Positions 5,553-56,901 of a stretch of 58,194 nucleotides of DNA are shown piece by piece (the first letter of the stretch is position 1; each line of letters begins with the position of its first letter). Source of the stretch: a virus. Its lineage: Duplodnaviria > Caudoviricetes. Where the stretch lies: positions 1 through 58,194 of the IMG/VR virus record IMGVR_UViG_3300009466_000003. One strand, written 5' to 3'. The notes beneath the pieces were generated by a model. It made no database searches. It saw only the letters and a program-made list of their open reading frames with translations, and had not been told where the DNA came from. The position numbers and the translations under genes are program-made.

Positions 5553-5704
5553 GCAAGCCGTTGAAGCCCAAGAAGAAAAGCTATCCGAAGAAGCCCGAAA
5601 TCACATCCTGCTATTACTGTGGGTCAAATAAAATTGAACAAGTTCCAATCTCGCATGTCGGAGTTATTCGGATATGCAAGAACTGCAAAGAACAACTGGA
5701 CTAA
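5549..5704 (+). CDS. 51-aa basic zinc-ribbon protein (not in ORF track)
   Basis: CYYC...CKNC; ATGA-coupled to the amidase. Confidence 0.6.
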   Translation: MSKPLKPKKKSYPKKPEITSCYYCGSNKIEQVPISHVGVIRICKNCKEQLD

Positions 5705-18154: not shown

Positions 18155-19242
18155 TGGCAAATGGCATTGCAACAGAGTATCCAAGAATGGCACCTTCTGA
18201 AATAGAAGCTATGGTTCAAGAGCGTGTTGGTGGTGGCGGAGGGATTGGACAAGATTTTCAATCTTGGCAGTATAATATCCCCGAAGGTGGAGGAACGGCA
18301 TACCCCAAAAGCCGCAGGCAGATGCGAATGGAGGCAGAATACCAGCAATATCAATTGAAAGAACTTGAACGCATGAAAGCGTTGCAAGCAATGGAAATGG
18401 CTGAAAAGCAATATGGTCTTCAGCTTGAACAAGAACAGAGGTTGCGAGAAAAACAACAGCTTGATCTTGACAGACAGGAAGAAGTTCAAAACCAAGCTCG
18501 CATGGCCATGGGCGCAATTCTGGGATCGGTTCAGCCTGATGGCCAAAGAACTAGGCCAATCAATATTAATGACGATGATGCCGTCGAAAGACTTCAATCT
18601 GTAATTTATTCCAACCAGCTTGGAATGGAGGATCAGGCTACCAAAGAAGCTGTTGTTGGAATGTTGAATGATGCTCTTCGTGTTCGTGAACGTAAACTGC
18701 AAACATCTCAAGAGCAGGAGTTGGCAGCATCAACACTTTCGGCGCAAACTGGAAAACCAATGAAAGAGTTTGGAGAGTATACGGCAGAAGGCATCTTTCG
18801 TCCCAATTTGAATGCCATTGTCAAAGCCAATGAAGAGTTAAAACAGAAAGAAGAAGCTGCTGCTGAAGAAAAAGAAGTAGCCAAAGAAACCCGAAGGGCG
18901 GAAGCAAGAGAGACTGTTGCCGAGAAAAAATCCAAAGAAACTCAAATTATCGGAATTGATAAAGAGTTGCGTAGGGAAGGTCTTGCTTTGGAAGAAGTTG
19001 CGGCAAATCTTGGATTGCAGCGTGACCAGTCTGGAAGGTTTAATATTGGCGGGCTTTCTGATACTCAGAAAAAAACATTTAGGGCGGCTGAGAATCGCGT
19101 TAGACTTTTGGAACAGGACAAGGCACAATTGCAGGGATTTATGTTTGACACAGAGGCAGATGCCCAAGCGGCAATTGAGGCCAAAAGAGTTCCAAAGGGA
19201 GCCATCATATTTATTAATGGCAAAAAAGCTATCAACCGATAA
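18154..19242 (+). CDS. Putative internal virion (ejection) protein
   Basis: Glu/Gln/Lys coiled coils; C-terminal VPKGAIIFINGK motif. Confidence 0.5.
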   Translation: MANGIATEYPRMAPSEIEAMVQERVGGGGGIGQDFQSWQYNIPEGGGTAYPKSRRQMRMEAEYQQYQLKELERMKALQAMEMAEKQYGLQLEQEQRLREKQQLDLDRQEEVQNQARMAMGAILGSVQPDGQRTRPININDDDAVERLQSVIYSNQLGMEDQATKEAVVGMLNDALRVRERKLQTSQEQELAASTLSAQTGKPMKEFGEYTAEGIFRPNLNAIVKANEELKQKEEAAAEEKEVAKETRRAEARETVAEKKSKETQIIGIDKELRREGLALEEVAANLGLQRDQSGRFNIGGLSDTQKKTFRAAENRVRLLEQDKAQLQGFMFDTEADAQAAIEAKRVPKGAIIFINGKKAINR

Positions 19243-22200
19243 TGCCGATAGAATATCTAGATGATATCGAAGAGGATATTACAGAAGCGGCGGACACTAC
19301 TCCCGTAGAGCAACCGCCCGTTGCTGGCGTTTCTGAGCCAGTCGCGCCAGAACCCTCTGGAGAATTTGGCGGAAGGATTGAATACATTGAAGAAGAGCCT
19401 CTAGAAATAGAGCCTCCTAGAGATAATAGCTGGGACACGCTCCGAGGTTTTGAGGTTTCGATGCGGCAAGTTCCGCAGTTGGCTTACGGGGTGGCGGGGT
19501 TGGTCGGTGAGACCGCAGAACAATTGACAGGCTATGGCGAATCGCTCCGAGACTGGGGGTTCCGTGGATACCAAGATTGGGCCGAAAGCATGGAGCCAAT
19601 CTCCAAGGAAACCGATGATGTTACGGTGGCATGGCAGAAAGCCAAAGAAGGAGATATCGGTGCGCTGGTTGATTGGGCGCAATACGGTATTGGTTATGCG
19701 CTAGGACAGCTTGGAGAAACGGCAGCTATTGCAGTCTTGGGCGGTATAGCTGGTGGTGCGGCGGGAGCGGCTGGTGGACCAACGGCAGTTCCAGCGGCGG
19801 CGGGCGGTGCTGTGGTGGCTGCGGCTGGAAAAACTGGATTTAAGGCTCTTGCCAAAAATCTTGTTGAGAAAGCCATCAGCGCACAAGCGAAAAATATTGT
19901 TAAAAAACAAGCTGCAAAAGAAGGAATTGAACTTACTGGTGAACAATTAGCCAAACGCGCACAGCAAGAGGCTATTAAGCGTCAGGCTGGCAGAGAGATT
20001 GGTTCTAATGCTGCCGTGTTTGCCAATGCCATCGGAATGCAACTTGGTGCCATCTACGGATCTGCCGAGGAAAAGGCCCGTGAGGAAGGGCGTGAACTTA
20101 CAGGATTGGACTTGGCTCGCATCTGGGGTAGCGGCATTGCCACGGGCGGACTGGAAGGTGTTGTTGATAAATTTGGATTGGATCTTTTGAAGGGTAAGTT
20201 TGCCGAAGCTCTTCCTGCTGGACGGCTGGCTGGTGCGGCGGTGGCTGGCCCGATTGGTCTTGTTGGCGAAGCGGCAACCGAAGCAGTTCAAACTGTTGGC
20301 GAGCGATTCGGCGCAGGCAGGGAACTTCTTAGCGACGAAGCTATCAACGAATATATCAATGCTTCTGCCTTGGGTGGTATTGGTGGCGGGGTTATTGGCG
20401 GTGCTGGCGGGTTTATCTCTGGCAACCCCAAGGAAAACGCCGCAGCCAAAGCCAAGGTATCTTCAGAGGCTAATAAGGACATCGCTCCCGCTACCGCCGA
20501 GACCGTAGCCAGACAAGCCGATGCCGTAATTGCTGAGACAGTCCAAGAAACTCCCGAACAGCGAGTAGCCCGCCTCCAAGAAGAATCTGCCGCAGCAGCA
20601 GGAATAGAACTAGAAGAAGAAGGGGAAGGCGGGGTTGAGCCGACAGTTCCCGTCACTCCTCCCGTAGCACCCACTCCCGAAGGCGCAGTAGCCCCTGTAG
20701 AGCCAGTTGTTACTCCAGAAGTAGCAGAGCCGCAGCCAGCCGCAGAAGTCGCGCCCACTTCAATTTCAGAATCTGAACAAATTAAAAACATTAAAGACAA
20801 GGGCGTCACCGCCATTCACTTTTCAAGGACTCCAATGCAACTTGAAAAAGGTGTAGATATTTCAAAAATTAAGGGCGCATATCCAGAGGAGTCTGTATTT
20901 GGTCGTGGGTTTTACGCAATGGAACCAGCAGATGAGTCTTCTTGGAGAAGTGCCAGTAGGTTTCAACTTGGAGACTATAGAAATGAAGTAAAATTATCTC
21001 CAAAAAACCCAATCATTATATCTCCAGACACAGTTAAAAAATACGGATATGATGAAATTAAAAATCGCGTTGATCAAGGTGGATACGATGCAATTATTGT
21101 TAGTGGCTGGAATCCCGAATACGATGCTGGCATAGAAAAAAGACTGAACGAGCTTTGGAGTCCAGTCTTTCCAGAAGGAAGGACAAGTGGACAATTTTTA
21201 AACACCAAAGAATATGATGCGGCAATAAGTAGAGCCACAGAAGAAATTACTGGTCTTTCAAGGAAAGACTATGAGGCGATAAGTAAAAGTGGATGGGATC
21301 AAAATCAAGTATTTATCCCACCAGATATTGCTTCTGACATTGTATCGAAGCCAGAAGTGACTCCTCCCGCCGAGGTTGCTCCCGAAGTGACCCCGAATCT
21401 TGAACCCCTACGCCGAGTAGCAAGAGCAGAACAAGCCCCAGAAGATATTCCCTCTTTGGTGGAGGCGGGGTTGGTCGAGGTGTATAAAGATCAACCTGTC
21501 ATTACGGAAGCGGGGATTGCCCAATTGCCCGAAGCAGAACGTCCAAGGCTGACGCCCGAAGCCCGAAAGATCCAAATCGACACAGGAGCAAACGAAGTAG
21601 TAGCCGAAGCCATCTCCAAGAATCTTCGTATCGGGGTCGATCAGGTGGGAGCCAATGTGCGTATGCCCGCAGGCTGGACACTGGTAGAGGATATCTATGT
21701 GCCGCCAGCCAAGCAGGAAGTAGCGAAAGCGGGACAACCAGAACAAGCAGTAACCCCGCCGACATTAAAAACAAAATATACAGACAACAATCTTGAAAAT
21801 GTTTCTTTTCCGCGCACATCTGGTCAACCCAATCAAGCAAGGCAAGCGTTGGAAGTTATTTCCAAAGGAAGTTCTCCGTATGCACAGTTGGCTCAAGAAA
21901 TTCTAAATGCTGCCAGCACCAATCCAGAAATAAGCTTCGCAATTAGCAATTCAAAATTTACCAGATCAACGCCAGCGCAAGACAGGGGAAGATTTAAAAA
22001 CAGATCTTTTTACGAGGCGGCATACAGGACAATAGCCATGAATCCCAATCAGGCTGGGGATACGCGAATTGCCGTCCATGAAATTATCCATGCCATCATC
22101 GCGCACAAACTTCCTAATCAAATATCATCAAGCAAACTCAAGGGTAAAAAATATAAAAATGTTTTAGACAAAGCAATCGCGGATAAGTCTTTGCCCAAAC

Positions 22201-25200
22201 CACTGCGCGACATAATTCGTGGATACATTCTTACCGTTGAAAAAATGGGCGCTGCTGAAACATTGTGGGGCACTGGCCCAGATGCTGGAACCACATCTCA
22301 AACACTTAATGTTTCAGTAAAATATCTTGGTGCGCCGATTGGGGCACAAACCAAGGCGCAAAGAGAGGGCGGCAGGTCATATAGAATCCAAAAGAAATCG
22401 AATGTTCAAAAGCTTCTAAGGTATCTAAAGGAAAACGGGATTACAGAGGTTGATGTTCGTCAAGGATCTTATGGAATTAGATCCAGAGGCGGGCAACCAT
22501 ACTATGATGTAATTATCGCAAATTCTGATCTTGAAAAGATCGCCGTTAATAAAAAGCAGCAGGGCAAGCATCCGTCATATTACGGAAACAAGGGATACGA
22601 TCCGACCAACAATGCTTTAACTTGGAACATAAAAAACAAAAAGTTCCCACTTGCCAATGATCCAGATGCAGTTGTCGAATACGGCTTTGAATACGGTCTT
22701 GGTAATATTGATGAGTTCCTTTCCGAAGCACTGAGCAATCCCGAATTCCAAAAAGTCCTCAACGAGATTGAGATGGAACAAGGAAAAACAATTTGGCAAA
22801 CAATTGTTGACGCCATCGCCCGAATCCTAGGTATCGAAGTGAAGGCGGGATCTGTGCTGGATGTGATATCCAGATCGGCATTTGAGTTGGCTACAGAAGG
22901 AGACCTTCTTCTGGCTGGAGGCCGAACCCCGTCCCCCGCCCCCGAAGTAAGAGAATCCCGCAGGGAACCCGCTCCCCTTACCCAACAAGACAGAGAGTAT
23001 CTGGATGCGGTGGAAAGAGGAGATTTGGATGCGGCGTCGAGGGTCGTGGATGCGGCGGCACAGGCTGCTGGAAATGTGACAACGGCTTATAGGTCAAACA
23101 CACAAACAACCACAGTATTCGACACAAAGAATCGGGCCGCTTGGTTCACCGATGATCTGACTGATGCCCAAGACTATGCATCTATCACAGACGTAGATCC
23201 CGAAACAGTAAGCAAATACTATCTCAACACCGACAACTTCGCGTCACTTGATGATCCGCAAATAGCCCGACAGATCAGAGATATCGTTCCGAACATGAAT
23301 GATCTGATGGCGGTGAGTGATGCTATGCCGCAAATCCGCCAACGACTTGGAGAAAGGTATGACGGCATCAAGGTGACCAGCTTTTCGATGGGCTATGAAA
23401 CGACCCACTACAATCCCTTCAAGCCCGAAAGAATCAAATCGGCAGACGCCGTAACCCGCGATGACCAAGGCAACATCATCCCTCCCAGCCAACGCTTCCA
23501 GCCCACAGAAGAAGATATAAGGTATTCCAGACGGGAGCCAGTCCTTCTAAAGAATCGCTTCTACTCACAGCTTGAGCGCACGGTTGCGGCAAAGATGCCA
23601 AACGTCTCGTCTCCCGAACAGCTTAAAGCCATCATCGATCCTTCTAGGGGAAGCGGGGTCAAGCCCGAAGAAATAAAATGGAGCGGTATCACCGAGGCCA
23701 TTGACCGCATTGCCGCCGAAAACAACGGGCGAGTCCCGAAAGAAGCCATCATCAAGTATATGCAGGATGAAGGCAATGTCCGCTTTGAAGAGGTAACTCT
23801 GGCGAGAAAGAAAGTTCCATATACTGGCGGGGAAATCAAGCGAATGCCCAACGGAACATACAAGTTGTCGTTCTTTGGATACGACAGCATGTATACAAAA
23901 CTAGAAGACGCTGAATCTGATCTCCAAAAAATGCGGGAAGGCGCGAGCAGAACAGAAGACGAGACTACTTATTCACAATATCAACTTCCTAATGGCGAAA
24001 ACTATCGTGAGGTTATATTGACAACGGCTTCTGGTGGTTCTTATCAAGATCCCCAAAGATTACGAGACCTATCTCGCGAAAGGCGCGGCATTCAGGAATC
24101 TGGAAGAATGCTTACCAGAGAAGAGTCGAACAGGATTACTGAAATAGACAAAGAAGTCAGAACTCTTGAAGATAGAATTGAGCAAGCAAAGTCTAAATAC
24201 AAATCTCCTCACTTTGCAAATATACCAAACTACGTTGCCCACATGCGTCTGAATGATCGCAAGGATGCAGAAGGAAAAGACGGAACATTTATTGAAGAAA
24301 TTCAATCAGATCTCCACCAAAAAGCCAGAGAGGTTGGATATAAAGACGAAGGCATTGTTCAGCAGAATTTTGTAAGCTGGTTGGCCGCAAACAAAAAAGA
24401 ACTTTCCGAACAAGAAATTCAAACACAATTTAAAACAAGGATTGGTGAGGAAATCCAGCAATGGACTAAAGACCAAGAAATCGCCGCAAAAAATGCCAGT
24501 GCCGTTCCAGATGCGCCGTTCCGCAAGGATTGGTCGCTGCAAATGTTTAAGAGGGCGTTGGAAGAGGCTGTTGCAAGCGGTAAAGATTGGATTGGATGGA
24601 CAACTGGGGATACGCAGGCGGCACGATATGATTTAAGCAAGCAAGCAAAGGCTGTTATCTATAACAAGAATCGAGATGGTTCATTCACTATTACGGTTAG
24701 AGATCTAAACGATGTAAACTCAAAAATAGGAGACTATTCTGCCGAGAAGTTGCCTGATGTTGTCGGCAAAGAGCTTGCGGAAAAAATCGTAAACGATCCA
24801 AACCCAAATGGAATCTTCGCTGGAAACGACCTAAAGATTGGCGGCGAGGGGATGAAAGGATTTTACGACAATATCCTTCCCAAAGAGATTGCCAAGTATG
24901 TCAAGAAGTGGGGCGCAACTGTTGAGAAGTCTGAGATATCGGCGGGCGTTGGTATTAATGCTTGGGTATTTTTAGATGATGATGGTGTGTTTAGAGTCAA
25001 AGATAGAAAAGACGGAAAAGACCCACAGGCTAAAACTTTGGGAGAATTTGATAATCAAACAGACGCCGAAGAATTTGCGCGTATGTATAAGGGGGAAAAT
25101 GTCCCAATCTGGCGCGTCAGCATCACTCCAGAGATGCGCCGAATCATCGAAGAAGAAGGACAGGCTTTATTCTCTCTACAGATGCCCAGCCGTATTGCTG

Positions 25201-28200
25201 GCATGGAACCCGAAGCAGTGACAACCAAGCTGGAGTCTTTGGGATTCGGGCGGGGTGGGATTGTATCAGTGGTCAACGAACCCGATGCCTCCTTTGAAGG
25301 CCGCACCATCATCCGAGACGGGAAAGTAGTAGGTATAGAGCTAAACGCCGCAGCCTTGAGAGACGATGCCGCTGTAGAGCGAGTCTTGAACCATGAGATT
25401 GCCGAATCCGCCAATGCCGATGGGGCGCTTAATCGTTTGGTGGCGGGGTTGACCCCGAAAGAAAGAAAAGAAATCAACGATGCCATCACTAGGTTGGGCT
25501 ACGCAGAGCGGGCTAGAACCGCCGAGGAAGCCGCCAGAGCCGTCGAATTACTAGCCGAGGGATGGAGGGGCAGACGCTGGTTTGAACGTGCTGTGGCGCG
25601 GATTGAGGCATGGGCCAACAAGCTGGGATACAAGCTCACCCGACGAGCCGCCGAATACATCGCCGCCCGCAACATGGCGGAAGTCAACGATAGCTTCAAA
25701 CAGGCATACAACAAATTTATCAATGTGCAGGGAGAGGCTAGGGAAGCGCGAGTTGGCGAGCAAGCTGTCGTTGATGCCGATATGGGCCGCAGATCGCAGA
25801 CCGAACTAACGCCACAAGAAATAGAACAACTAGAAAGCGGCGAGAAAATCCGAGTCTACAGGGCGATGCAAGTCATTGATGGAAAGCTGTATCCGCCGAT
25901 GTCCGCTTTGGTTGGCGGAAAACTCCGCAAGCCCACAGAAATTGGAACATGGGAAAAGGCCGAAGAGCGCCCAGACTTGCTGGATAAGCGGGGCAAATTC
26001 ATTCTTCAGAAGGGCAACAAAGCGACAGTCCCCGCAGCATACAACCCGTATTTCCACACATCTACCTCACCCCTAAATGATCAGTTTTCTTCGGCATACA
26101 AGAGAGACAATCTTGTCACGGTTGAAGTCGAGGTTCCCGCCAGCGAATTGACCAGTGGCTACAAAGCAGATGGCGCAAAGGATGCCGTGGGCGAAGTCCG
26201 CTGGAATGCTGGCCCCGTGAGCAGCAAGCTCCCCGCCGACAAGAAACGCAAAGTTATTCTTTCGCGCTACGCTAAGGTTGTCCGCATTGTTCCCGACAGC
26301 GAGGTTGCTGGAATCATCGCAAATCTTCTTGAGGGTACTAATCTTTCTATTCCAGAAAACACCGTCACCCCGTCACTAAAAGCTGAACTGGAAAAGCAGG
26401 GAATCAGCGTAACCCCGCGACCAGTAAGAGGTGAGGAGATCCGCGAATCCCGCAGAGAAGACGCCATCCCCACCTTCTCCGAGGGAAGCCCCGAAGCATC
26501 CACTCTATCTACTATGGCCTCATCTATGGCCAAGGTGGATGCGGCGTCCGAGGCCAAGCCAAACCCCGAAAACAAACCCACCTACAAGATCAGCGAGATA
26601 GCCTCTGTCTGGATGGATCAAGGGGGAGATGCCCGTCAACTCCAAGACATGGTGGTGGAGTATACCAACCTCACACCAGCCAATGCCAAGAAGGTAGCCA
26701 ATGCCATTGCCAAGCAATACGATATCCAGCAGTCGATTGCTACGGCATTTTTAGAAACTCCCGCTGGCATTTCGGTGGAAGCCCTACCCGAAGGTGTCAC
26801 GCTCCCGAAAGAGGTTGATCCTGATCGTCCGCGCCCCGTCATGCAGCGCCTCTTTGATGTGTTCATGGGAGTCAGGGTAAAACCCGTCAAGATTACTGGT
26901 GATGAAAAGGCATTGCTTAAAAGCCAGATCCGCCTCAAGGCCGCAGCCAATCGTGCGGCAAAGCAGGAGCAGCAACGCACCGCAGACGAGGTTGTTGAGA
27001 TTATCAAGTCCATGGAGCTTCGCGGCCCCGTCCGCCCAAAACAAGCACAGGCTCTAGCCAAACGCGCAGCCAAGGTGATCTGGACAAGCGAGAAATCCAT
27101 GGAGACCTTTGTCGAATACGCCGCCAAGGTGGTGGAGAACGCCAACTACGATGCGGATCTCCGCGAGGCCAAAGCGGCACAGAAACGCGCCAAGGAACTT
27201 TCCAAACAGAAGAAAGTCGCCATGAGTCCGCAGCGTCTAATCCTCCAACAGATTGGTAATGTCGCAGTTAATAAGCTGGATGATCCGCGCATGTTTGCCG
27301 AGATGATCAACTACTACTTGCGTGGATTCAAGGATGTGCGTTCTCCTGACTATGTGGTGGTTCCCGATGAAGAAATCACGGGCTACATATCTCAACTGGA
27401 AAACGAGTCCGTCACAGATCAAGCCGAGGTGGAGCGCGAGACCAACGAAAGGCTTGCCCGCAAATACGACCTTGATCCCAATACCATTCCAGAGTTGATG
27501 AGCCTTATCAACATCATCGAAGAGATTGAAGGCAGGGAGAACCGCGAAGCCTTGGAATCGATCCTTACTGACAAAGCCATCGAAACCCAAGACGGATTGC
27601 GCGGATATGACACAACCGCGCTTACTAACACTCAAAAGAAATTGGTTGAGTCAATGCTCAATGTAGATCTGAAGTCAATCAATACACAAGAGCGGCAAAT
27701 GTTTATCCGCATTGCCAACAATATGATTTACAACAATCAGACCAATGGCGCGGAATACTTTGTGGCTACGGCCAAGGGGCAAGAAAATGCTCGCAAGGCG
27801 GCAAGAGATTCCAAATTGATCCAACGCAACCAAGCTTGGATTCCGCTTATTCCTTCCTTTGGATCTTTGAAGCTGCAAGAAACCCTTCGCAACTTCTCTT
27901 TGGAATTGCAATCAGTGGCCGACACCTTCCGCAATGTATTCGGAAAAGACTTTATGGCCAAGGCTTACGAGATGATGGGGATGCTGGATCTGAATGAGGG
28001 ATTCACCAAAGCCAACAATACCATTGATGAAATCCAAGATCTGATGGCCGAATTTCACCAAGGCAACAAAAAGAAATATGGTGACGCAGCCCGCAACCAA
28101 GACGGCATTCTCTCCGAGGGTGTGGCTGGATTCTTGATCCAAGAATTCCCGTTCAAGGATGAGGCAACCTCAATTCAGCAACGCCGAAACCTGATCAATG

Positions 28201-30185
28201 AATACATCGCCAATGCCCGCGAATCCCGTCAGAAAGATCGTGTAGCCATGGCGGATCGCGTCGAAACCATCCTTAACAAAATCGATGGTGCTTCGGTTCA
28301 AGAGATCTTGAACAATATGAAGCGCGAATACCGCCCGAACTACGATTCACTCATGTGGTACAAGGATGTGCTGTTCCCTAAATACAAAGACTTCCTCAAA
28401 CAATTTGATGAGAACTTCAACGATCAGGCTAACAACTACGATAGCCCGAATTATCTTCCGATTGCCTTTACTTCGGCTGGCCCAGCCTTGGCTCTTACAA
28501 CAGAAGATGTGAGCATTGCCAACTCCATTTCTCTACAGCCCAAACAATCTGTCTACACTATCAAACGCCAAGATTACACCACACTTCCCAAAGACAGGGA
28601 TGGAAATCCTAAAGAAATTGAATTCAATCTTCGTCGCAACGCCTTCAACAGCTTGTCAGATCAGATCAATAAGGCTTACACCAACCCTTCTTGGCAGCAG
28701 ATCTTTGCGTTTATGAAGACTCCAGAATCTATTGAGTTCTTTGGAGACAAAGCTAACCGCGACTTCTTTGTGGATCGCCTCAATAGGTTGCGTGTTTCCA
28801 GAGCAAGGCGCGGATCTGTCAGTGGTGGGGGATTGGAAAAGGCACTTGATTCTTTAAGTATTATTTCCAGAAAACTTGGCACTGGCATTGCCCTTGGTGG
28901 CGCGTTCCAGTGGATCAAGCAGCCCCCAGACCAGCTTCTTACGGCTTTGGGTAGCGGTGGGCGAGGAGATCTTCTGGCTAAAAATATTGCGCCATCTACC
29001 CAGAAAGCGGCCAGAGAACTTCTGAATCTGTTTTCCATTGGACGCCGTGGAGATTCGTCTGCTGGTTACAAATACATCAACCAGATGGAAGGCCATCAAA
29101 GCCGCATGGAGCGTTACTTTAGTGAGAGCAAATGGGAGCAAGCCAAGGAACAGGGCGGGAAGATTGCCGATGTATGGATGGTGGCATTGAAGAAGTCCGA
29201 TTTCATTTCCGCTTCTGCTGCATGGATGACTTACTACGAAGGCGAACTAAACAAGAATGATATCAAGATTGATGACTGGGCCAAAGAAGCCGAGCTTGTC
29301 AAAACCGATCCCGTCAGGCGTCAAGCGGCGGCGTATGCCGAACAAATGACCGACATTTATCAGGGTTCAAGCGACCCGACATCCATGGCTACGTTTGCAC
29401 AAAGCGGTAAAACTGGTTGGGAAAACTTCGTCAAAGCTCTGTTGGTTCCATTCAACTCGTTCGCTGTCCAGCAACGTATGAGGCTTTACTCCGATGCCAG
29501 AGACGCACTCAACGGAACCAGTGGAGGCAAGGGTGGATTGGCTGGAACAATCGGCGGTCTCATCCTTTTTCATACCACGAAACGATTTGTCCTTCCTGTT
29601 ATTTCTGGCGGCACTGCCGCAGTCCTTTACGGAATGCTTGGCGTTGACATGGAAGAACCCGATGAAGAGAAGCAGAAAGAAATGGCTGATAGGAACTGGC
29701 GTCAGTTCTTGGCAGACATCACTGGTAACTTGCTGGTCGGCGGAACCCCGCAAATCGTTGAAAACAGGGTGATCGAATCTTTCAACTACGCTTCTTACAT
29801 GGTTGGTGTGCAGCTTGAGAGCGAAACGGTGATGGATGAAAACGGCGAGATCATGTCCTTTGACAAGTATTCCAAAGAGCGTTCTCCATTCTATCGCTAC
29901 AAGTCTTACGACAATGCCATGAGTCTTGGCATGTTTGAGATTGGATTTGATCAAGCCAAAGAGGCGGCGCTTCAAACCAAGATGCTCATGGATCGTGAAG
30001 AGATGGAGATGTATACGCCCGAAGAGCAGCGTCTCCTCTACTTCTCTGCACTTTCGGAGTGGCTGTATCTTATGCGCCTCAATGACACGGACTTCGCCCG
30101 TATCGTGAAGAAGGCCCGCCGCGACATGATCAAAGCAGCCGAAGAGCGCGAGAAAGAACTAGCCCGCATCCGCGCTGGACGCTAG
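19242..30185 (+). CDS. 3647-aa large polyvalent (ejected) protein with ART-like and zincin domains
   Basis: Gly/Ala hydrophobic N-terminus; ART-like H...GRGFY domain; HEIIH...EFLSEA metallopeptidase; ART-PolyVal-like AYR...WFTDD...YDGI...IKSAD domain; helical C-terminus. Confidence 0.75.
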   Translation: MPIEYLDDIEEDITEAADTTPVEQPPVAGVSEPVAPEPSGEFGGRIEYIEEEPLEIEPPRDNSWDTLRGFEVSMRQVPQLAYGVAGLVGETAEQLTGYGESLRDWGFRGYQDWAESMEPISKETDDVTVAWQKAKEGDIGALVDWAQYGIGYALGQLGETAAIAVLGGIAGGAAGAAGGPTAVPAAAGGAVVAAAGKTGFKALAKNLVEKAISAQAKNIVKKQAAKEGIELTGEQLAKRAQQEAIKRQAGREIGSNAAVFANAIGMQLGAIYGSAEEKAREEGRELTGLDLARIWGSGIATGGLEGVVDKFGLDLLKGKFAEALPAGRLAGAAVAGPIGLVGEAATEAVQTVGERFGAGRELLSDEAINEYINASALGGIGGGVIGGAGGFISGNPKENAAAKAKVSSEANKDIAPATAETVARQADAVIAETVQETPEQRVARLQEESAAAAGIELEEEGEGGVEPTVPVTPPVAPTPEGAVAPVEPVVTPEVAEPQPAAEVAPTSISESEQIKNIKDKGVTAIHFSRTPMQLEKGVDISKIKGAYPEESVFGRGFYAMEPADESSWRSASRFQLGDYRNEVKLSPKNPIIISPDTVKKYGYDEIKNRVDQGGYDAIIVSGWNPEYDAGIEKRLNELWSPVFPEGRTSGQFLNTKEYDAAISRATEEITGLSRKDYEAISKSGWDQNQVFIPPDIASDIVSKPEVTPPAEVAPEVTPNLEPLRRVARAEQAPEDIPSLVEAGLVEVYKDQPVITEAGIAQLPEAERPRLTPEARKIQIDTGANEVVAEAISKNLRIGVDQVGANVRMPAGWTLVEDIYVPPAKQEVAKAGQPEQAVTPPTLKTKYTDNNLENVSFPRTSGQPNQARQALEVISKGSSPYAQLAQEILNAASTNPEISFAISNSKFTRSTPAQDRGRFKNRSFYEAAYRTIAMNPNQAGDTRIAVHEIIHAIIAHKLPNQISSSKLKGKKYKNVLDKAIADKSLPKPLRDIIRGYILTVEKMGAAETLWGTGPDAGTTSQTLNVSVKYLGAPIGAQTKAQREGGRSYRIQKKSNVQKLLRYLKENGITEVDVRQGSYGIRSRGGQPYYDVIIANSDLEKIAVNKKQQGKHPSYYGNKGYDPTNNALTWNIKNKKFPLANDPDAVVEYGFEYGLGNIDEFLSEALSNPEFQKVLNEIEMEQGKTIWQTIVDAIARILGIEVKAGSVLDVISRSAFELATEGDLLLAGGRTPSPAPEVRESRREPAPLTQQDREYLDAVERGDLDAASRVVDAAAQAAGNVTTAYRSNTQTTTVFDTKNRAAWFTDDLTDAQDYASITDVDPETVSKYYLNTDNFASLDDPQIARQIRDIVPNMNDLMAVSDAMPQIRQRLGERYDGIKVTSFSMGYETTHYNPFKPERIKSADAVTRDDQGNIIPPSQRFQPTEEDIRYSRREPVLLKNRFYSQLERTVAAKMPNVSSPEQLKAIIDPSRGSGVKPEEIKWSGITEAIDRIAAENNGRVPKEAIIKYMQDEGNVRFEEVTLARKKVPYTGGEIKRMPNGTYKLSFFGYDSMYTKLEDAESDLQKMREGASRTEDETTYSQYQLPNGENYREVILTTASGGSYQDPQRLRDLSRERRGIQESGRMLTREESNRITEIDKEVRTLEDRIEQAKSKYKSPHFANIPNYVAHMRLNDRKDAEGKDGTFIEEIQSDLHQKAREVGYKDEGIVQQNFVSWLAANKKELSEQEIQTQFKTRIGEEIQQWTKDQEIAAKNASAVPDAPFRKDWSLQMFKRALEEAVASGKDWIGWTTGDTQAARYDLSKQAKAVIYNKNRDGSFTITVRDLNDVNSKIGDYSAEKLPDVVGKELAEKIVNDPNPNGIFAGNDLKIGGEGMKGFYDNILPKEIAKYVKKWGATVEKSEISAGVGINAWVFLDDDGVFRVKDRKDGKDPQAKTLGEFDNQTDAEEFARMYKGENVPIWRVSITPEMRRIIEEEGQALFSLQMPSRIAGMEPEAVTTKLESLGFGRGGIVSVVNEPDASFEGRTIIRDGKVVGIELNAAALRDDAAVERVLNHEIAESANADGALNRLVAGLTPKERKEINDAITRLGYAERARTAEEAARAVELLAEGWRGRRWFERAVARIEAWANKLGYKLTRRAAEYIAARNMAEVNDSFKQAYNKFINVQGEAREARVGEQAVVDADMGRRSQTELTPQEIEQLESGEKIRVYRAMQVIDGKLYPPMSALVGGKLRKPTEIGTWEKAEERPDLLDKRGKFILQKGNKATVPAAYNPYFHTSTSPLNDQFSSAYKRDNLVTVEVEVPASELTSGYKADGAKDAVGEVRWNAGPVSSKLPADKKRKVILSRYAKVVRIVPDSEVAGIIANLLEGTNLSIPENTVTPSLKAELEKQGISVTPRPVRGEEIRESRREDAIPTFSEGSPEASTLSTMASSMAKVDAASEAKPNPENKPTYKISEIASVWMDQGGDARQLQDMVVEYTNLTPANAKKVANAIAKQYDIQQSIATAFLETPAGISVEALPEGVTLPKEVDPDRPRPVMQRLFDVFMGVRVKPVKITGDEKALLKSQIRLKAAANRAAKQEQQRTADEVVEIIKSMELRGPVRPKQAQALAKRAAKVIWTSEKSMETFVEYAAKVVENANYDADLREAKAAQKRAKELSKQKKVAMSPQRLILQQIGNVAVNKLDDPRMFAEMINYYLRGFKDVRSPDYVVVPDEEITGYISQLENESVTDQAEVERETNERLARKYDLDPNTIPELMSLINIIEEIEGRENREALESILTDKAIETQDGLRGYDTTALTNTQKKLVESMLNVDLKSINTQERQMFIRIANNMIYNNQTNGAEYFVATAKGQENARKAARDSKLIQRNQAWIPLIPSFGSLKLQETLRNFSLELQSVADTFRNVFGKDFMAKAYEMMGMLDLNEGFTKANNTIDEIQDLMAEFHQGNKKKYGDAARNQDGILSEGVAGFLIQEFPFKDEATSIQQRRNLINEYIANARESRQKDRVAMADRVETILNKIDGASVQEILNNMKREYRPNYDSLMWYKDVLFPKYKDFLKQFDENFNDQANNYDSPNYLPIAFTSAGPALALTTEDVSIANSISLQPKQSVYTIKRQDYTTLPKDRDGNPKEIEFNLRRNAFNSLSDQINKAYTNPSWQQIFAFMKTPESIEFFGDKANRDFFVDRLNRLRVSRARRGSVSGGGLEKALDSLSIISRKLGTGIALGGAFQWIKQPPDQLLTALGSGGRGDLLAKNIAPSTQKAARELLNLFSIGRRGDSSAGYKYINQMEGHQSRMERYFSESKWEQAKEQGGKIADVWMVALKKSDFISASAAWMTYYEGELNKNDIKIDDWAKEAELVKTDPVRRQAAAYAEQMTDIYQGSSDPTSMATFAQSGKTGWENFVKALLVPFNSFAVQQRMRLYSDARDALNGTSGGKGGLAGTIGGLILFHTTKRFVLPVISGGTAAVLYGMLGVDMEEPDEEKQKEMADRNWRQFLADITGNLLVGGTPQIVENRVIESFNYASYMVGVQLESETVMDENGEIMSFDKYSKERSPFYRYKSYDNAMSLGMFEIGFDQAKEAALQTKMLMDREEMEMYTPEEQRLLYFSALSEWLYLMRLNDTDFARIVKKARRDMIKAAEEREKELARIRAGR

Positions 30186-37468: not shown

Positions 37469-37722
37469 GGTGGTATTTGATTAGACAGTGTGTTAGGGGT
37501 TTTGTTCAATGAAATCTTCATGGTCTATCCACGATTTTCCTGCCGAAGAAGGCGAGCAACCCGCGCCCGAAGCAGACAAACCTTGGGTTCCGCCGCCCCT
37601 AACCAATAAGGAAAAGCAAGCCCTCAAGTTTGCCATGATTCGGAACAGACCTGACCGCAAGGGACGGGGAGCCAGACGGCGAGCAGGGGAGAAGAAGTGG
37701 GCAACAAAAGGCAAATAGTTTT

Positions 37723-49856: not shown

Positions 49857-50165
49857 TCACTTGATGATTCCCTCTTGGCGGGCGATGGCCTCAATCTGGC
49901 TCACATACTCGCGGGTGCAGTTGAATTGCTCGGCTACGGCAGCAAAGTTCATTTCGGGGTTGGCCATGAGATAGCCAAGGACTTTGAAAGCCCGACCTCC
50001 ATGCATGCGCCTCTTGGTAGTCTTCTTGCGCTTGGCCCGAATCCCATTCTTACGCAATGCCTGTGCCATGGCTCCGTATTTGACTCCATGCTTTTCGGCA
50101 AGTTCGCCAATGGTGATTTCGGGGTTTTGTTCGATTTCTTGTGGTAGTAAGGATGCTTTGATCAT
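49857..50165 (-). CDS. Double-HTH DNA-binding protein
   Basis: ITIGELAEKHGVKYGAM and MNFAAVAEQFNCTREYVSQI. Confidence 0.7.
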   Translation of the reverse strand: MIKASLLPQEIEQNPEITIGELAEKHGVKYGAMAQALRKNGIRAKRKKTTKRRMHGGRAFKVLGYLMANPEMNFAAVAEQFNCTREYVSQIEAIARQEGIIK

Positions 50166-50182: not shown

Positions 50183-50213
50183 ACAACAGTAGCTGTTGTT
50201 CAATCGCCGTCAA
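50183..50213 (-). promoter_or_regulatory. Promoter with a palindromic operator over the -10
   Basis: TTGACG-16-TACTGT; ACAACAG-tag-CTGTTGT at 50183-50199. Confidence 0.55.
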
Positions 50214-50500
50214 ATAATATTATTGGAGAGGCGTGGAGACTTTCGTTTCCGCGCCTTTCGCGGTTTACGGGCCTTCCTCTGCTCCTTGTGGAACAATTTG
50301 TGGCACACCTTACATAGGCAGATCAGATCGTCCAAGTGGTTGAGTTCATCTCCTTGGTGTTCGTAGGTGCGGTGGTGGGCTTGGAGTTCCAGAGGGCTAT
50401 TGCATACCCCACATCTCCAGCCGTAGCGTTTCTTCACCAGTCGGCTTACTTCTTTCCAATAAGGCGTTCTCAAGTAGGATCTATAAGATTCTTTATCCAC
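50210..50500 (-). CDS. HNH endonuclease
   Basis: RCGVC...AHHRTY...LICLCKVCH. Confidence 0.85.
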   Translation of the reverse strand: MDKESYRSYLRTPYWKEVSRLVKKRYGWRCGVCNSPLELQAHHRTYEHQGDELNHLDDLICLCKVCHKLFHKEQRKARKPRKARKRKSPRLSNNII

Positions 50501-50520
50501 AGAGAAATACTACTCTCTTG

Positions 50521-50549
50521 TTGACAGTGTGGCCACCCTTAGTTATTTT
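50521..50549 (+). promoter_or_regulatory. Promoter P1 of the ncRNA locus
   Basis: TTGACA-17-TATTTT. Confidence 0.7.
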
Positions 50550-50554
50550 GGCGC

Positions 50555-50629
50555 AGGCGATTTGGGTGCGGTCTCTAGGAGCGGATGTTTCTATCAAGAC
50601 ATCAGTGAGGGGCCGCACCCTCTTTTTTT
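50555..50629 (+). ncRNA. Putative sRNA-1 (~75 nt): stem with large loop plus U-tract
   Basis: GGGTGCGGTCTCT/AGGGGCCGCACCC stem followed by TCTTTTTTT. Confidence 0.6.
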
Positions 50630-50633
50630 GATA

Positions 50634-50662
50634 TTGACTTATTTTTGAACGCCTGATAGGTT
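50634..50662 (+). promoter_or_regulatory. Promoter P2 of the ncRNA locus
   Basis: TTGACT-17-TAGGTT with extended -10 TG. Confidence 0.65.
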
Positions 50663-50668
50663 GCCGTG

Positions 50669-51390
50669 GTCTTGATAGATTCAGACATCCGCTCACGGCG
50701 AGCTAGACATATTGTAGCCGAATCTCCAGCGCAGGTATGCAAGGGTCACACCGCCGAACGTTGGAATATCCGAACCAAGCCTCGCCCGCTTGGTAATCCA
50801 GAAATAGTCTGGTAAAGCGACAGGGACATGCCCTGTGGAGTGCATCGACGTTATTGGGTCATCAGAATGGCAGCCTCGGAGCCTAGACGTTGGTGGTAGG
50901 GCTGAAGCAACTCATCTCGGAGGGATGAATACTTCGACTTTTTACAAAACTCCTGCCCCGTAGCTGGGGCGGAGTGTGTGGAGGACATCGCAATCTATCT
51001 GGATGGATTAATCTCCGACTATGCGGCGTTCGGGCGAACTGCGTAAAGAAGCCGCTATACTAGGCGGGGCGCACGGCTTTAGCCCCGCCGAATATCCCCC
51101 CAAAGAAAAAAGAAGAAAAAAGATTGAACGCCCCGAAGGGGCTATGGTCTATTACTCCATGGACAATTTAAGGGGGAGACTAGGTTCGACGCGCAAAACC
51201 AAGCGCGGACTCGGCTGCAATGCCGACTCCTCCACCAATTCGGAGGGGATCATTGAGGGCAAGATGAGTGTAAACTCCTTGAGCGACCTGAGTCCTCTCC
51301 CATTTTTTTTGGAGGCGGGGAAGACCCGACTGCAAAGTCGAAAGCTTCAAAGGCTGGGGGGCTAATGAAGTTGCGCCACCTCGCCTCCAA
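50669..51390 (+). ncRNA. Putative long structured RNA-2 (or long leader/origin transcript)
   Basis: Series of at least eight hairpins, no convincing ORF; 3' end unknown. Confidence 0.45.
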
Positions 51391-51398
51391 TTCTCTTT

Positions 51399-51752
51399 AT
51401 GAATAGACAAGAAGCAATACAACTACAGATTGATGACATCCTTGACAGTTTCGATTTTCAGGCGGTTATGAAGTCATTGGAAGTCTATAAGTCCATGGAG
51501 CGGGGTTATCCGTCCGATTGGTTCCTAGATGATGAGCCGTTTGAACCCGCGATTCGGGCAGCGGCTCGCGATTGCATGAAAGCGGCCATCAAAGAGGGCT
51601 ATGCTGGTCATAGCTACTTTGAAGCCCGCTTTACTGAAGGAGAAGACGAAGAAGGCCCGTGGGTCAGAATCACTCTTAATTTCGGGCTTCATTCTTACAA
51701 TGACGGAGTATCTTATGAAAAAACTACTACTACTACCCCTGTTACTGAGTAA
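51399..51752 (+). CDS. Hypothetical phage protein
   Basis: IDDILDSFDFQAV motif. Confidence 0.65.
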   Translation: MNRQEAIQLQIDDILDSFDFQAVMKSLEVYKSMERGYPSDWFLDDEPFEPAIRAAARDCMKAAIKEGYAGHSYFEARFTEGEDEEGPWVRITLNFGLHSYNDGVSYEKTTTTTPVTE

Positions 51753-54253: not shown

Positions 54254-55558
54254 ATGCACGAAGTCATCTACGAACCCTCGGCGGAAACCGCAATACTGTC
54301 CTGCCTCTGCCACGCGCCGACAGAGGACCAAAGGGAAATCTTACTTTCCATCAAGGAGGATCATTTCTACCTTCAGGAAAATAAAATTATCTTTCGGGCA
54401 ATCATGCGATGTATCGCCAAGGGGATGCAGGCCGATATCATCAATGTGAAGGCCGAAATCGAAGCGGCCAACGAATACGACATCATCGGGGGTGAACAAA
54501 AGATTGCAGAAGTTGCAACTTCATGTGTGGCCCACAACAATTGGAAACGCTACTACCCCAAGCTGGAAGAAGCCCGTTACAGAAGGTCATTGGAGTATCT
54601 GGCCAATGACATGGTTCACAAGGCCCGTGACCGCGAACTCAAGATTGACGAACTCAAGAACTGGTCGGAAACCACCGTAATGAAGGCCGACTATGAGATG
54701 GATGACGGGGACAAGCTATCCATCATTAGCGCCCTAGACCGCGCTGCCCAGAACATCGAATCCACCATTGCGGGTAAGCCCTGTGTCGGCATCAAGACGG
54801 GACTGGTTCCAGTAGATGATCTTTTAATCTTCGGCATGCGAGGAGGAGATATGGTAGTGGTCGCCGCCCGTCCAGCAGTTGGAAAGACCAGTAGCGCCAT
54901 GCAGATTGCAGAGCATGTGGCTCTCAACCAGCAAAAACGGGTATTGGTGTTTTCTCTTGAGATGACCAGTGTTGCTCTCATGGAGCGACTGATCCGCTCC
55001 CGTGCGCGTGTGCGAGCGGCTGACATTCTGGCTAGGACGGTGACCCCGCTACAAAAGAAAGCACTGGCAGATGCCACAATGGAAATCCAAGGCTCCAAGA
55101 TCTTGTGTGATGATAGTTCGGCCAAGTCCATCGGCTATCTCAAGGCAGTAGCTCGCCGCGCCCACCAGCGCGAACCACTCGACCTCATCATTATCGACTA
55201 CCTCCAGCTTGTCAGAGGGGACAGTCGGCGCGGAAAAGAAAACCGTGTGTGCGAGGTGGAAGAGATTAGCGGCGGCATAAAAGACCTAGCCAAGACGCTC
55301 AAGGTTCCTGTTCTGGTTCTGGCTCAACTCAATCGCGACCCCGACAAGCGCGGAGGACGCCCAAGTCTGGCCGACCTCAAGGGATCAAGCGCCATTGAGA
55401 TGGATGCCGATATTGTCATCATGCTCCACAGCGAAGAAGCCGCCGATCACGGGCAAAATCCCACCATGGAATTTATCGTAGCCAAGCATCGTGAAGGCCC
55501 GACAGGTGTGGCCAACATGGTCTTTAACAAGGCTATTACCCGATTTGAGGTGGCGTAG
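54254..55558 (+). CDS. dnaB: Replicative DNA helicase
   Basis: AARPAVGKT Walker A, FSLEM, IIIDYLQL, LAQLNR, DLKGSSAIEMDAD, AKHREGPTG. Confidence 0.95.
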   Translation: MHEVIYEPSAETAILSCLCHAPTEDQREILLSIKEDHFYLQENKIIFRAIMRCIAKGMQADIINVKAEIEAANEYDIIGGEQKIAEVATSCVAHNNWKRYYPKLEEARYRRSLEYLANDMVHKARDRELKIDELKNWSETTVMKADYEMDDGDKLSIISALDRAAQNIESTIAGKPCVGIKTGLVPVDDLLIFGMRGGDMVVVAARPAVGKTSSAMQIAEHVALNQQKRVLVFSLEMTSVALMERLIRSRARVRAADILARTVTPLQKKALADATMEIQGSKILCDDSSAKSIGYLKAVARRAHQREPLDLIIIDYLQLVRGDSRRGKENRVCEVEEISGGIKDLAKTLKVPVLVLAQLNRDPDKRGGRPSLADLKGSSAIEMDADIVIMLHSEEAADHGQNPTMEFIVAKHREGPTGVANMVFNKAITRFEVA

Positions 55559-56144: not shown

Positions 56145-56901
56145 CTAGCTCCGCTTCGTAGGTTGAATCTTCGGGAATCTTCATGGATTCCAGCTTGGTG
56201 GCGATATTGATTTGGATGGCGTTTTGTTGATTGACGCCTTCGGAGAAGTTGATGGCAGCAGCTTCAGCCAGTTGCTTGATATTCCGCATCATTCCAAGAG
56301 CCTCCATGCCGTCGAGATCTTGCGCGGCATCAGCGGCCTTGACTAATACTTTACCAGTAAGAAACTTGATTGATTTTTTCATGGTCTCCAATGAAGCCGT
56401 AATTTCCGACATCAAAGTGGGAACCCCATCATCCTCCCAAGGGGCAGGAGATTGTTCGTTGACCAGTCGTTCTCGACATTGAATCCAACGCTGAGTATCG
56501 CGCCATAGACAGACCGTAGACTCACTAACTTTTAGTTCTTCGGCAATGTCCCGAATCGTCCTTCCCGAACAATACATGGAGAATCCCTTGATACACTCAA
56601 GCCTGCGCTTCTTGTCCATCTCTTCCATCTTGGCGGGAGGCGGAACTAAAGCTACGGGCTTTTCCACATCCCAAGGATAGAGGTTTTCTTTTTCGGGATT
56701 TGCCTGCCAGATCTTTGCATGGTCATCCCATTTCTCGCTATAGATAAGCTTCTCAAGTGTGGGTTTGTGCTTGGTGTCCAAGGCTTGCATGACTTCTGGC
56801 ATCTTTCGACCAGCGGCATACAATCGAAAGGCGTTTTGTTTTTTAAGTCGATTTTCGGGGCTGTCCCAATCCCGTTCTGCAACCTTGCGCTTTTTCTCCA
56901 T
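56131..56901 (-). CDS. Putative terminase small subunit with two gpP-like HTH units
   Basis: AFRLYAAG...W and GFSMYCSGRTIRDIAEELKVSESTVCLWRDTQRW; adjacent to TerL. Confidence 0.6.
   Translation of the reverse strand: MEKKRKVAERDWDSPENRLKKQNAFRLYAAGRKMPEVMQALDTKHKPTLEKLIYSEKWDDHAKIWQANPEKENLYPWDVEKPVALVPPPAKMEEMDKKRRLECIKGFSMYCSGRTIRDIAEELKVSESTVCLWRDTQRWIQCRERLVNEQSPAPWEDDGVPTLMSEITASLETMKKSIKFLTGKVLVKAADAAQDLDGMEALGMMRNIKQLAEAAAINFSEGVNQQNAIQINIATKLESMKIPEDSTYEAELVVNE

Follow-up and report, generated by a model that had tools for sequence, protein, structure and literature searches.

The 58,194 bases of the IMG/VR virus IMGVR_UViG_3300009466_000003, analyzed here at full length and called the window throughout, carry just beyond position 50500 a non-coding locus in which the loop of a predicted small RNA, sRNA-1, is complementary to the first hairpin, H1, of a longer predicted RNA, RNA-2, encoded downstream on the same strand. 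In relatives of this phage both segments differ in their letters and remain complementary, and we believe that their pairing is very probably a selected RNA-RNA interaction. That sRNA-1 serves as a trans-acting regulator of RNA-2, with specificity classes carried by the pair, is a reading that we hold with roughly even confidence; beyond the pairing itself, we infer that there are two separate transcripts, that sRNA-1 acts in trans, which partner controls the other and what this does to RNA-2.

Results

Loop and target remain complementary as their letters change

On the + strand, where all features of the locus described below lie, sRNA-1 is a predicted unit of about 73 nt (50556-50629, both ends predicted) that runs from the start set by promoter P1 to the end of a T-run, and folded alone it forms one long hairpin (-32.2 kcal/mol). 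Its variable loop (50579-50600) holds two blocks, block 2 with GAGCGGATGT at 50579-50588 and block 1 with TCTATCAAGAC at 50590-50600, and the exact reverse complements of both lie within H1 (50663-50699, closed by GCCGTG with CACGGC): ACATCCGCTC at 50685-50694 for block 2 and GTCTTGATAGA at 50669-50679 for block 1. A first-pass annotation of this DNA, made from the sequence alone, had reported this two-block complementarity of 21 bases, and its letters and positions are correct; neither loop block has a second exact copy in the 58 kb window. The helix can also continue beyond the blocks. In the fold of 50555-50720 it adds 50574-50578/50703-50707 and 50567-50572/50711-50716, and the minimum-energy fold and the cofold together mark extra stretches of RNA-2 at 50703-50719, in a second hairpin (H2), as able to pair with the 5' arm of sRNA-1 (50564-50578). 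The duplex strings of relatives show the same kind of extension into the 5' arm.

Relatives were gathered in two ways. The neighbouring helix-turn-helix protein led to 35 viral loci in viral metagenomes (individual loci are denoted by L and a number), 23 of which were matched by BLAST with 50500-50720; except in the near-identical L004 and L005, the match covered only the first 152 bases, from P1 through the hairpin stem and T-run into the second promoter, P2, and it ends there because the loop and the segment after P2 differ between phages. A viral scan with a core motif of RNA-2 gave 48 stretches, the contigs often in duplicate, which reduced to 37 distinct upstream regions. sRNA-1 is conserved in 30 of these 37, comprising 26 with the same hairpin stem, three (L182, L185 and L186) with a different G+C-rich stem and T-run at the same place, and one cut by a contig end. 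The other seven (L011, L157, L158, L161, L168, L189 and L195) have RNA-2 without sRNA-1. A broader scan for the hairpin pattern, which is its own reverse complement and unspecific, returned at least 120 stretches, six of them in the family after filtering. The carriers keep the promoter, the hairpin, the T-run and the complementarity, and the letters of loop and target differ from phage to phage. Retention of the complementarity in homologous loci, on which the first-pass annotation had staked its proposal, is thus borne out with other letters, and covariation could be measured on 19 sequences.

That measurement used an alignment (A2) of 19 distinct sequences and 500 shuffles, with the pairing register taken from one sequence, which favours the unslid register over the slid ones. 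Pairing cells made up 93.0% of the total, compared with 82.6 +/- 1.0% in the shuffles (0 of 500 reached the observed value) and 36-50% when the partner was slid by one to three columns; cells changed on both sides numbered 62, compared with 22 +/- 4 in the shuffles (again 0 of 500) and 4-10 when slid; and the covariation score was 0.323, compared with 0.144 and 0.04-0.08, respectively. Double changes occur in 10 of the 19 loop-target pairs, and at columns 39-41 with 119-121 the pair types switch in 8-10 sequences each.

Duplex energies describe the same relationship. The cognate duplex of the window reaches -38.2 kcal/mol; over 300 shuffles of the target the mean is -17.4 +/- 3.7 and the best value -30.2. 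All 21 distinct loop/target combinations, including those of the distant relatives L182, L185 and L186, form cognate duplexes of -30.7 to -40.4 kcal/mol, with shuffled targets averaging -14 to -22 kcal/mol over 11 sets. In a 15 x 15 matrix of loops and targets the cognate mean is -36.2 kcal/mol and the non-cognate mean -26.3. Taken as two molecules, sRNA-1 and RNA-2 favour the complex by 12-18 kcal/mol (cofold -73.0 versus -60.6 for the parts, or -71.9 versus -54.3). The duplexes also have a strand: G-U accounts for 66 of 413 pairs, and when each duplex is compared with its reverse complement, the + strand version is the stabler in 19 of 21 combinations (14/15 and 5/6 in two sets). The G-U pairs and the + strand advantage together indicate RNA pairing of the + strand, rather than a DNA palindrome, a protein-binding palindrome or a minus-strand RNA.

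The sRNA-1 unit

P1 (TTGACA-17-TATTTT, 50521-50549) is a sigma-70-like promoter with 10 of 12 matches, the sole site of that quality between 49000 and 53000; by eye, three versions of the leader occur among relatives, each with TTGAC(A/T) and, at a spacing of 16-17 nt, a TAnnnT hexamer. The terminator-type hairpin spans 57 nt (50564-50620, stem 50564-50576 with 50608-50620) and is followed by seven T at 50623-50629. The hexamers of P1 and P2, their 17-nt spacings and the terminated hairpin are all as the first-pass annotation described them. The outer eight pairs of the stem are invariant in 19/19 sequences of A2, and mean pairwise identity falls from 1.00 in the hairpin stem to 0.63 in the loop and 0.51 in the target, which makes loop and target the least conserved parts. 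The sequence complementary to the loop is located 40-90 nt past the T-run; with the target beyond the terminator, simple attenuation does not explain the arrangement, as the first-pass annotation had also argued.

RNA-2, a structured non-coding RNA

The core of RNA-2 (50669-51110, ends predicted) is a conserved, structured non-coding RNA of about 450 nt, seen in an alignment (A1) of 13 diverse sequences that runs from the promoter to an A-rich tract over 576 columns; RNAalifold predicts 54 pairs, 29 of them with compensatory change. The RNA carries invariant single-stranded motifs, and in some relatives its hairpin tips hold insertions of 60-100 nt. Rfam offered no family for it up to E = 10 in 50400-51500, with three weak hits elsewhere in that region. 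Of 18 relatives, 9 have a start codon at the target; measured against the invariant core, the three frames are used by 9, 5 and 4 relatives, the open lengths range from 2 to 62 aa, and the products are not hydrophobic. With no conserved reading frame there, a type I toxin and a leader peptide are both eliminated as readings, along with the analogy to type I antitoxin RNAs drawn in the first-pass annotation.

The seven relatives without sRNA-1 have an RNA-2 with its own H1, so sRNA-1 is not needed for the fold of RNA-2, which fits the role of an accessory regulator. A search of the fetched contig parts of these relatives for a partner small RNA elsewhere gave only chance-sized matches of 8-9 nt, and the single 11-nt match, in L158, sits in another copy of a promoter-like motif rather than in a small RNA. 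L011 also lacks the HNH gene that neighbours the locus, and its leftward promoter abuts P2.

Towards the predicted end of RNA-2 lies the A-rich tract (51098-51123), behind which stands another copy of the promoter-like motif TTGAAC described below. A reading of RNA-2 as the primer RNA of a replication origin was considered and set aside: nothing tested supports it, and the A-rich tract belongs to the copy of the TTGAAC motif.

Two further elements adjoin RNA-2. The stretch 51172-51237 resembles the tRNA-like domain (TLD) of a transfer-messenger RNA (tmRNA) without the tag-coding part, with a 7-bp acceptor stem whose third pair is G-U, the stretch GGTTCGACG, a short hairpin, GGAC, a 5-bp T-arm and an encoded ACCA end. 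Its Rfam scores are 21.9 bits for tmRNA_permuted (E 0.003; gathering score 47) and 12.5 bits for alpha_tmRNA; its fold reaches -23 kcal/mol (z -2.3), and ARAGORN made no call. Similar stretches were seen by eye in L009, L016 and L168. A G3-U70 pair is the identity mark of alanine tRNA, and tmRNAs reduced to the TLD exist in some mitochondria. Behind it, 51241-51310 forms a closed element, a 7-bp stem of GGAGGGG with CCTCTCC around a branched interior followed by eight T, which is conserved and whose closing stem in L011 covaries to GGTGG with CCACC (by eye); it may end the non-coding transcript.

Promoters between the partners

P2, also sigma-70-like, consists of TTGACT (50634-50639) and TAGGTT (50657-50662) with a spacing of 17 (50634-50662), and in A2 its TTGAC and TAG..T are invariant and their spacing constant. 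The first-pass annotation is upheld for these hexamers, and its first base of the second transcript, 50669, stands as a prediction only; what it had left out is a second promoter-like motif, apparently phage-specific, TTGAAC-N18-GTC at 50645-50671, which overlaps both P2 and the start of the target and whose TTTGAAC and GTC are likewise invariant in A2. The general form TTGAAC-N16-19-GTC occurs 11 times in the window, against 2.14 +/- 1.53 expected, and none of 100 shuffles reached 11. Copies lie at 5634, 12030, 13197, 37002, 50645, 51124 and 52545 on the + strand and at 37509, 46537, 49211 and 50203 on the - strand. Eight of the 11 stand 8-23 nt before the start of an open reading frame (ORF) on the same strand, a position that would give very short leaders or none, and two stand in the non-coding locus. 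The composite TTGAC-N5/6-TTGAAC has only two sites: P2, and the helix-turn-helix gene's leftward promoter. We take the motif to resemble promoters of extracytoplasmic function (ECF)-type sigma factors; in the 80%-complete record no Sigma70_r2 match was found for a sigma factor that might read it, and a 17-bit Sigma70_r4_2 match at 56512-56577 is below the cut-off.

Traces of the locus in RNA libraries

RNA libraries of several studies contain parts of the locus. The four sequencing runs compared with the locus all consisted of contigs, which show neither strand nor starts or ends, and an RNA library may hold DNA; the shares were small (0.04-0.18, with 0.42 in one unlabelled run). An RNA-library contig from X1 covers 50653-50861 at depth 27 without a difference from the window, and its gaps (sRNA-1, and 50862 onward) are no evidence of absence. 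The start of this contig and that of an RNA-library contig from X6 at 50555, the predicted start of P1 transcription, are at most weak hints. Overall, RNA of this region seems to be present in nature.

Genomic context

The record has an estimated completeness of 80%. Around 50500 gene orientation diverges: to the left, on the minus strand, are a small HNH-like ORF (50210-50500) and the helix-turn-helix protein (49857-50165), and for about 900 bases to the right the ORF list holds no convincing ORF. A DnaB-like helicase gene (54254-55558) lies nearby. At normal thresholds neither Rfam nor ARAGORN had a match in the window. By eye, L002 (at about bases 60-140 upstream) and L185 show a tRNA-gene-like stretch between the helix-turn-helix gene and the next element.

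In a search for cultured relatives, a phage collection gave no DNA match, and the primase matches only phages at <=36% identity, the best being Porphyromonas and other phages. No integrase was found in the 80%-complete record, so a role in lysogenic immunity is not evident. A scan of genome contigs with the RNA-2 core motif gave 86 stretches, about the number expected by chance on a rough estimate, none with a TTTGAAC box upstream; thus no prophage or host copy was found there, which is no proof of absence. Searches of article text found nothing on the locus, though RNA catalogues in supplements could list RNA-2, and the 11-letter RNA-2 core motif was found only in unrelated human primer lists. 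Elsewhere in the window, ORF 19242-30185 encodes 3647 aa without a PHROG family at E 1e-5; the idea of an N4-like virion RNA polymerase was dropped when the PHROGs gave no family.

Discussion

A proposed same-strand antisense pair

Overall, the locus is best described as a candidate tandem antisense pair encoded on one strand. P1, near the sigma-70-type consensus, would produce sRNA-1, a single long hairpin ended by its intrinsic terminator, and RNA-2 would begin about 40 nt past that terminator. The upper, variable part of the sRNA-1 hairpin would then pair with H1, probably loop to loop at first, and the duplex could spread to 26-31 pairs, opening H1, the foot of H2 and the terminator hairpin, so that sRNA-1 might regulate the folding or the stability of RNA-2. 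It could do so in trans on RNA-2 made from P2 or from the overlapping phage-type promoter, and equally on transcripts that read through from P1. Loop and target are the most variable parts and fall into several specificity classes, and the pair therefore probably sets which relatives cross-react in a mixed infection, much as the c4 loops do for phages P1 and P7.

A more far-reaching version of this model can be outlined. Consider a cell infected by two relatives of the family: if loop and H1 are an RNA identity tag under diversifying selection, a phage's sRNA would switch off, or else enable, RNA-2 in every co-infecting relative bearing the same tag. RNA-2 would represent a new class of RNA of about 450 nt, with the tmRNA-like TLD lacking a tag-coding part as its neighbour, in a family showing no sign of lysogeny. 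We regard this version as tentative and on balance unlikely. If it were true, incompatibility or superinfection would be governed by RNA alone, with a non-coding RNA as the target and not an mRNA or a replication primer.

Weighing the alternatives

Several observations weigh against trans regulation by specificity class. Specificity is blurred inside a class, some non-cognate pairs matching cognate stability (best -40.7 kcal/mol), and single shuffled targets equal or beat the cognate in three of 11 sets (L009, L014 and L185), so energy alone is not decisive; L009 and L182 are the two combinations that lack a + strand advantage. The GTC at 50669-50671 is both the end of the TTGAAC motif and the first three bases of target block 1, and if it works as a -10-like element, transcription from that promoter would begin within or beyond block 1; block 1 covaries, and an RNA containing it must therefore exist. 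The X1 contig reaches 16 nt upstream of 50669, the predicted start from P2, and so does not fit a start there. The 151-nt X6 contig (50555-50705) extends more than 31 nt to either side of the terminator, so either read-through molecules or carried-over DNA exist, and a contig from X3, probably DNA, bridges the terminator as well. The 166-nt read-through RNA 50555-50720, finally, has the loop/target helix as its minimum-energy fold (-58.5 kcal/mol), which makes an intramolecular reading energetically possible.

The bridging contig and the long helix favour a single RNA, in which P1 reads through and loop and H1 form an intramolecular helix, either as a structural part of an enlarged RNA-2 or as a fold switch between a state with terminator hairpin plus H1 and a state with the long helix. 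We consider this a serious possibility, though clearly a minority one. Covariation alone is blind to the difference between cis and trans, and 57 nt is long for a terminator hairpin. At the same time, a strong intrinsic terminator, its stem and T-run either invariant or preserved, is present in every carrier, seven of the 37 relatives keep RNA-2 with H1 though the whole sRNA-1 part is absent, a conserved promoter pair (P2 and TTGAAC-N18-GTC) stands between the partners, the shorter segment 50550-50700 folds as a separate terminator hairpin and H1, and hypervariable partners are unexpected for a purely structural helix. The invariant stem, the kept T-run, the promoter elements between the partners and the relatives without sRNA-1 thus argue for two transcripts, without the matter being settled. 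The same bridging contig would also fit control in the opposite direction, in which the 5' end of RNA-2 binds the 5' arm and loop of the nascent P1 transcript before the terminator closes and so causes read-through in a feed-forward manner. The complementarity does reach the 5' arm of the terminator (50564-50578 with 50703-50719), similarly in relatives; this extension consists largely of G-U pairs, however, and the mechanism needs fast trans pairing within a few seconds of transcription, and we think it unlikely.

Two further explanations were weighed. Position at the divergence of two gene blocks, near a DnaB-like helicase gene, and the overlap of the target with promoter motifs might suggest an inverted repeat acting as DNA, through protein binding or a cruciform at an origin or operator; this is very unlikely, since the 66 G-U pairs among 413 would be A-C mismatches on the other strand, 19 of 21 combinations favour the + strand, the arms contain interruptions and stand 68-96 nt from each other, and the A-rich tract is part of a TTGAAC motif copy, with no obvious origin. 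Block of translation of a small ORF at the target, as in a type I toxin-antitoxin or leader-peptide system, scarcely enters into consideration: a 49-aa ORF (50666-50815) does begin at the target in the window, and some relatives have ATG just before a conserved TC, whereas half of the 18 relatives have no start codon, the frames are three, the products are 2-62 aa and non-hydrophobic, and it is RNA structure that is conserved instead.

Relation to known systems

We return to the reading of sRNA-1 as a regulator of RNA-2 in trans. The first-pass annotation set the tandem layout against the overlapping one of its analogues; as a principle this layout is not new, in view of the same-strand precedents c4 of phages P1 and P7, CI of phage P4, and IsrK. 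In phages P1 and P7, loops a' and b' of c4 pair with downstream targets, and RNase P cuts c4 from the operon transcript (PMC5320573); c4, icd and ant share one operon, immI (PMC8198154), the c4 target covers a ribosome-binding site, and a few changed letters in loop and target make related phages heteroimmune (PMC12197685). Like c4, sRNA-1 would be a small phage RNA whose gene precedes its target on the same strand, and in both cases two loop stretches pair with two target stretches. The differences are that sRNA-1 has its own predicted promoter and intrinsic terminator where c4 is processed by RNase P, and that its target is the first hairpin of a structured non-coding RNA and not the ribosome-binding site of the next gene (icd/ant). 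No stretch of the window reaches the gathering score of Rfam C4 (RF01695), and a search of 50400-51500 up to E = 10 did not list it either.

P4 CI, which pairs with seqA and seqC on the same untranslated leader and controls the downstream genes (PMC4825925), likewise has antisense and target on one strand; CI is made by processing, causes premature termination and has targets to either side of it, whereas the only target found in the present locus is downstream. IsrK of Gifsy-1 has a short isoform that ends at a Rho-independent terminator and acts in trans on a read-through isoform of the same promoter (PMC4825925). The present locus would share with it a terminated short RNA that pairs with downstream sequence, the terminator here being predicted and bridged by one RNA-library contig that may come from DNA; IsrK differs in opening the ribosome-binding site of an mRNA, where this locus has no conserved ORF and a further promoter between the partners.

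The analogy to RNAI/RNAII made in the first-pass annotation holds in part. In ColE1 RNA I/RNA II and R1 CopA/CopT a small hairpin RNA contacts hairpins at the 5' end of a long, structured, non-coding RNA, and the loops define specificity groups. Our locus resembles ColE1 only in its kind of target, which is again the 5' part of such an RNA; the analogy fails for the layout, because the plasmid antisense RNAs come from the opposite strand, whereas here both partners are on the + strand, non-overlapping and 68-96 nt apart. Antisense from the opposite strand is complementary automatically, and separate genes such as these need paired mutations. Kissing loops have been described in plasmid copy-number control (PMC4872101). 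Same-strand antisense control is already established in phages, and what sets this locus apart is its own promoter and terminator, a non-coding target and, in the incomplete record, no sign of a lysogeny module.

Significance

The locus is a clean natural example of two separately encoded RNA segments that paired mutations have kept complementary over about 20 sequence versions, and these versions are a ready-made set of orthogonal RNA-RNA pairs. That RNA-2 has a dedicated RNA regulator, as proposed, suggests that the function of this uncatalogued RNA is important. In its transcription, the phage family appears to place near-consensus sigma-70-type promoters beside a private promoter-like motif. 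Should the specificity classes control cross-talk in co-infection, immunity by RNA as in phages P1 and P7 would also occur in phages that have no lysogeny module, with a non-coding RNA as its target.

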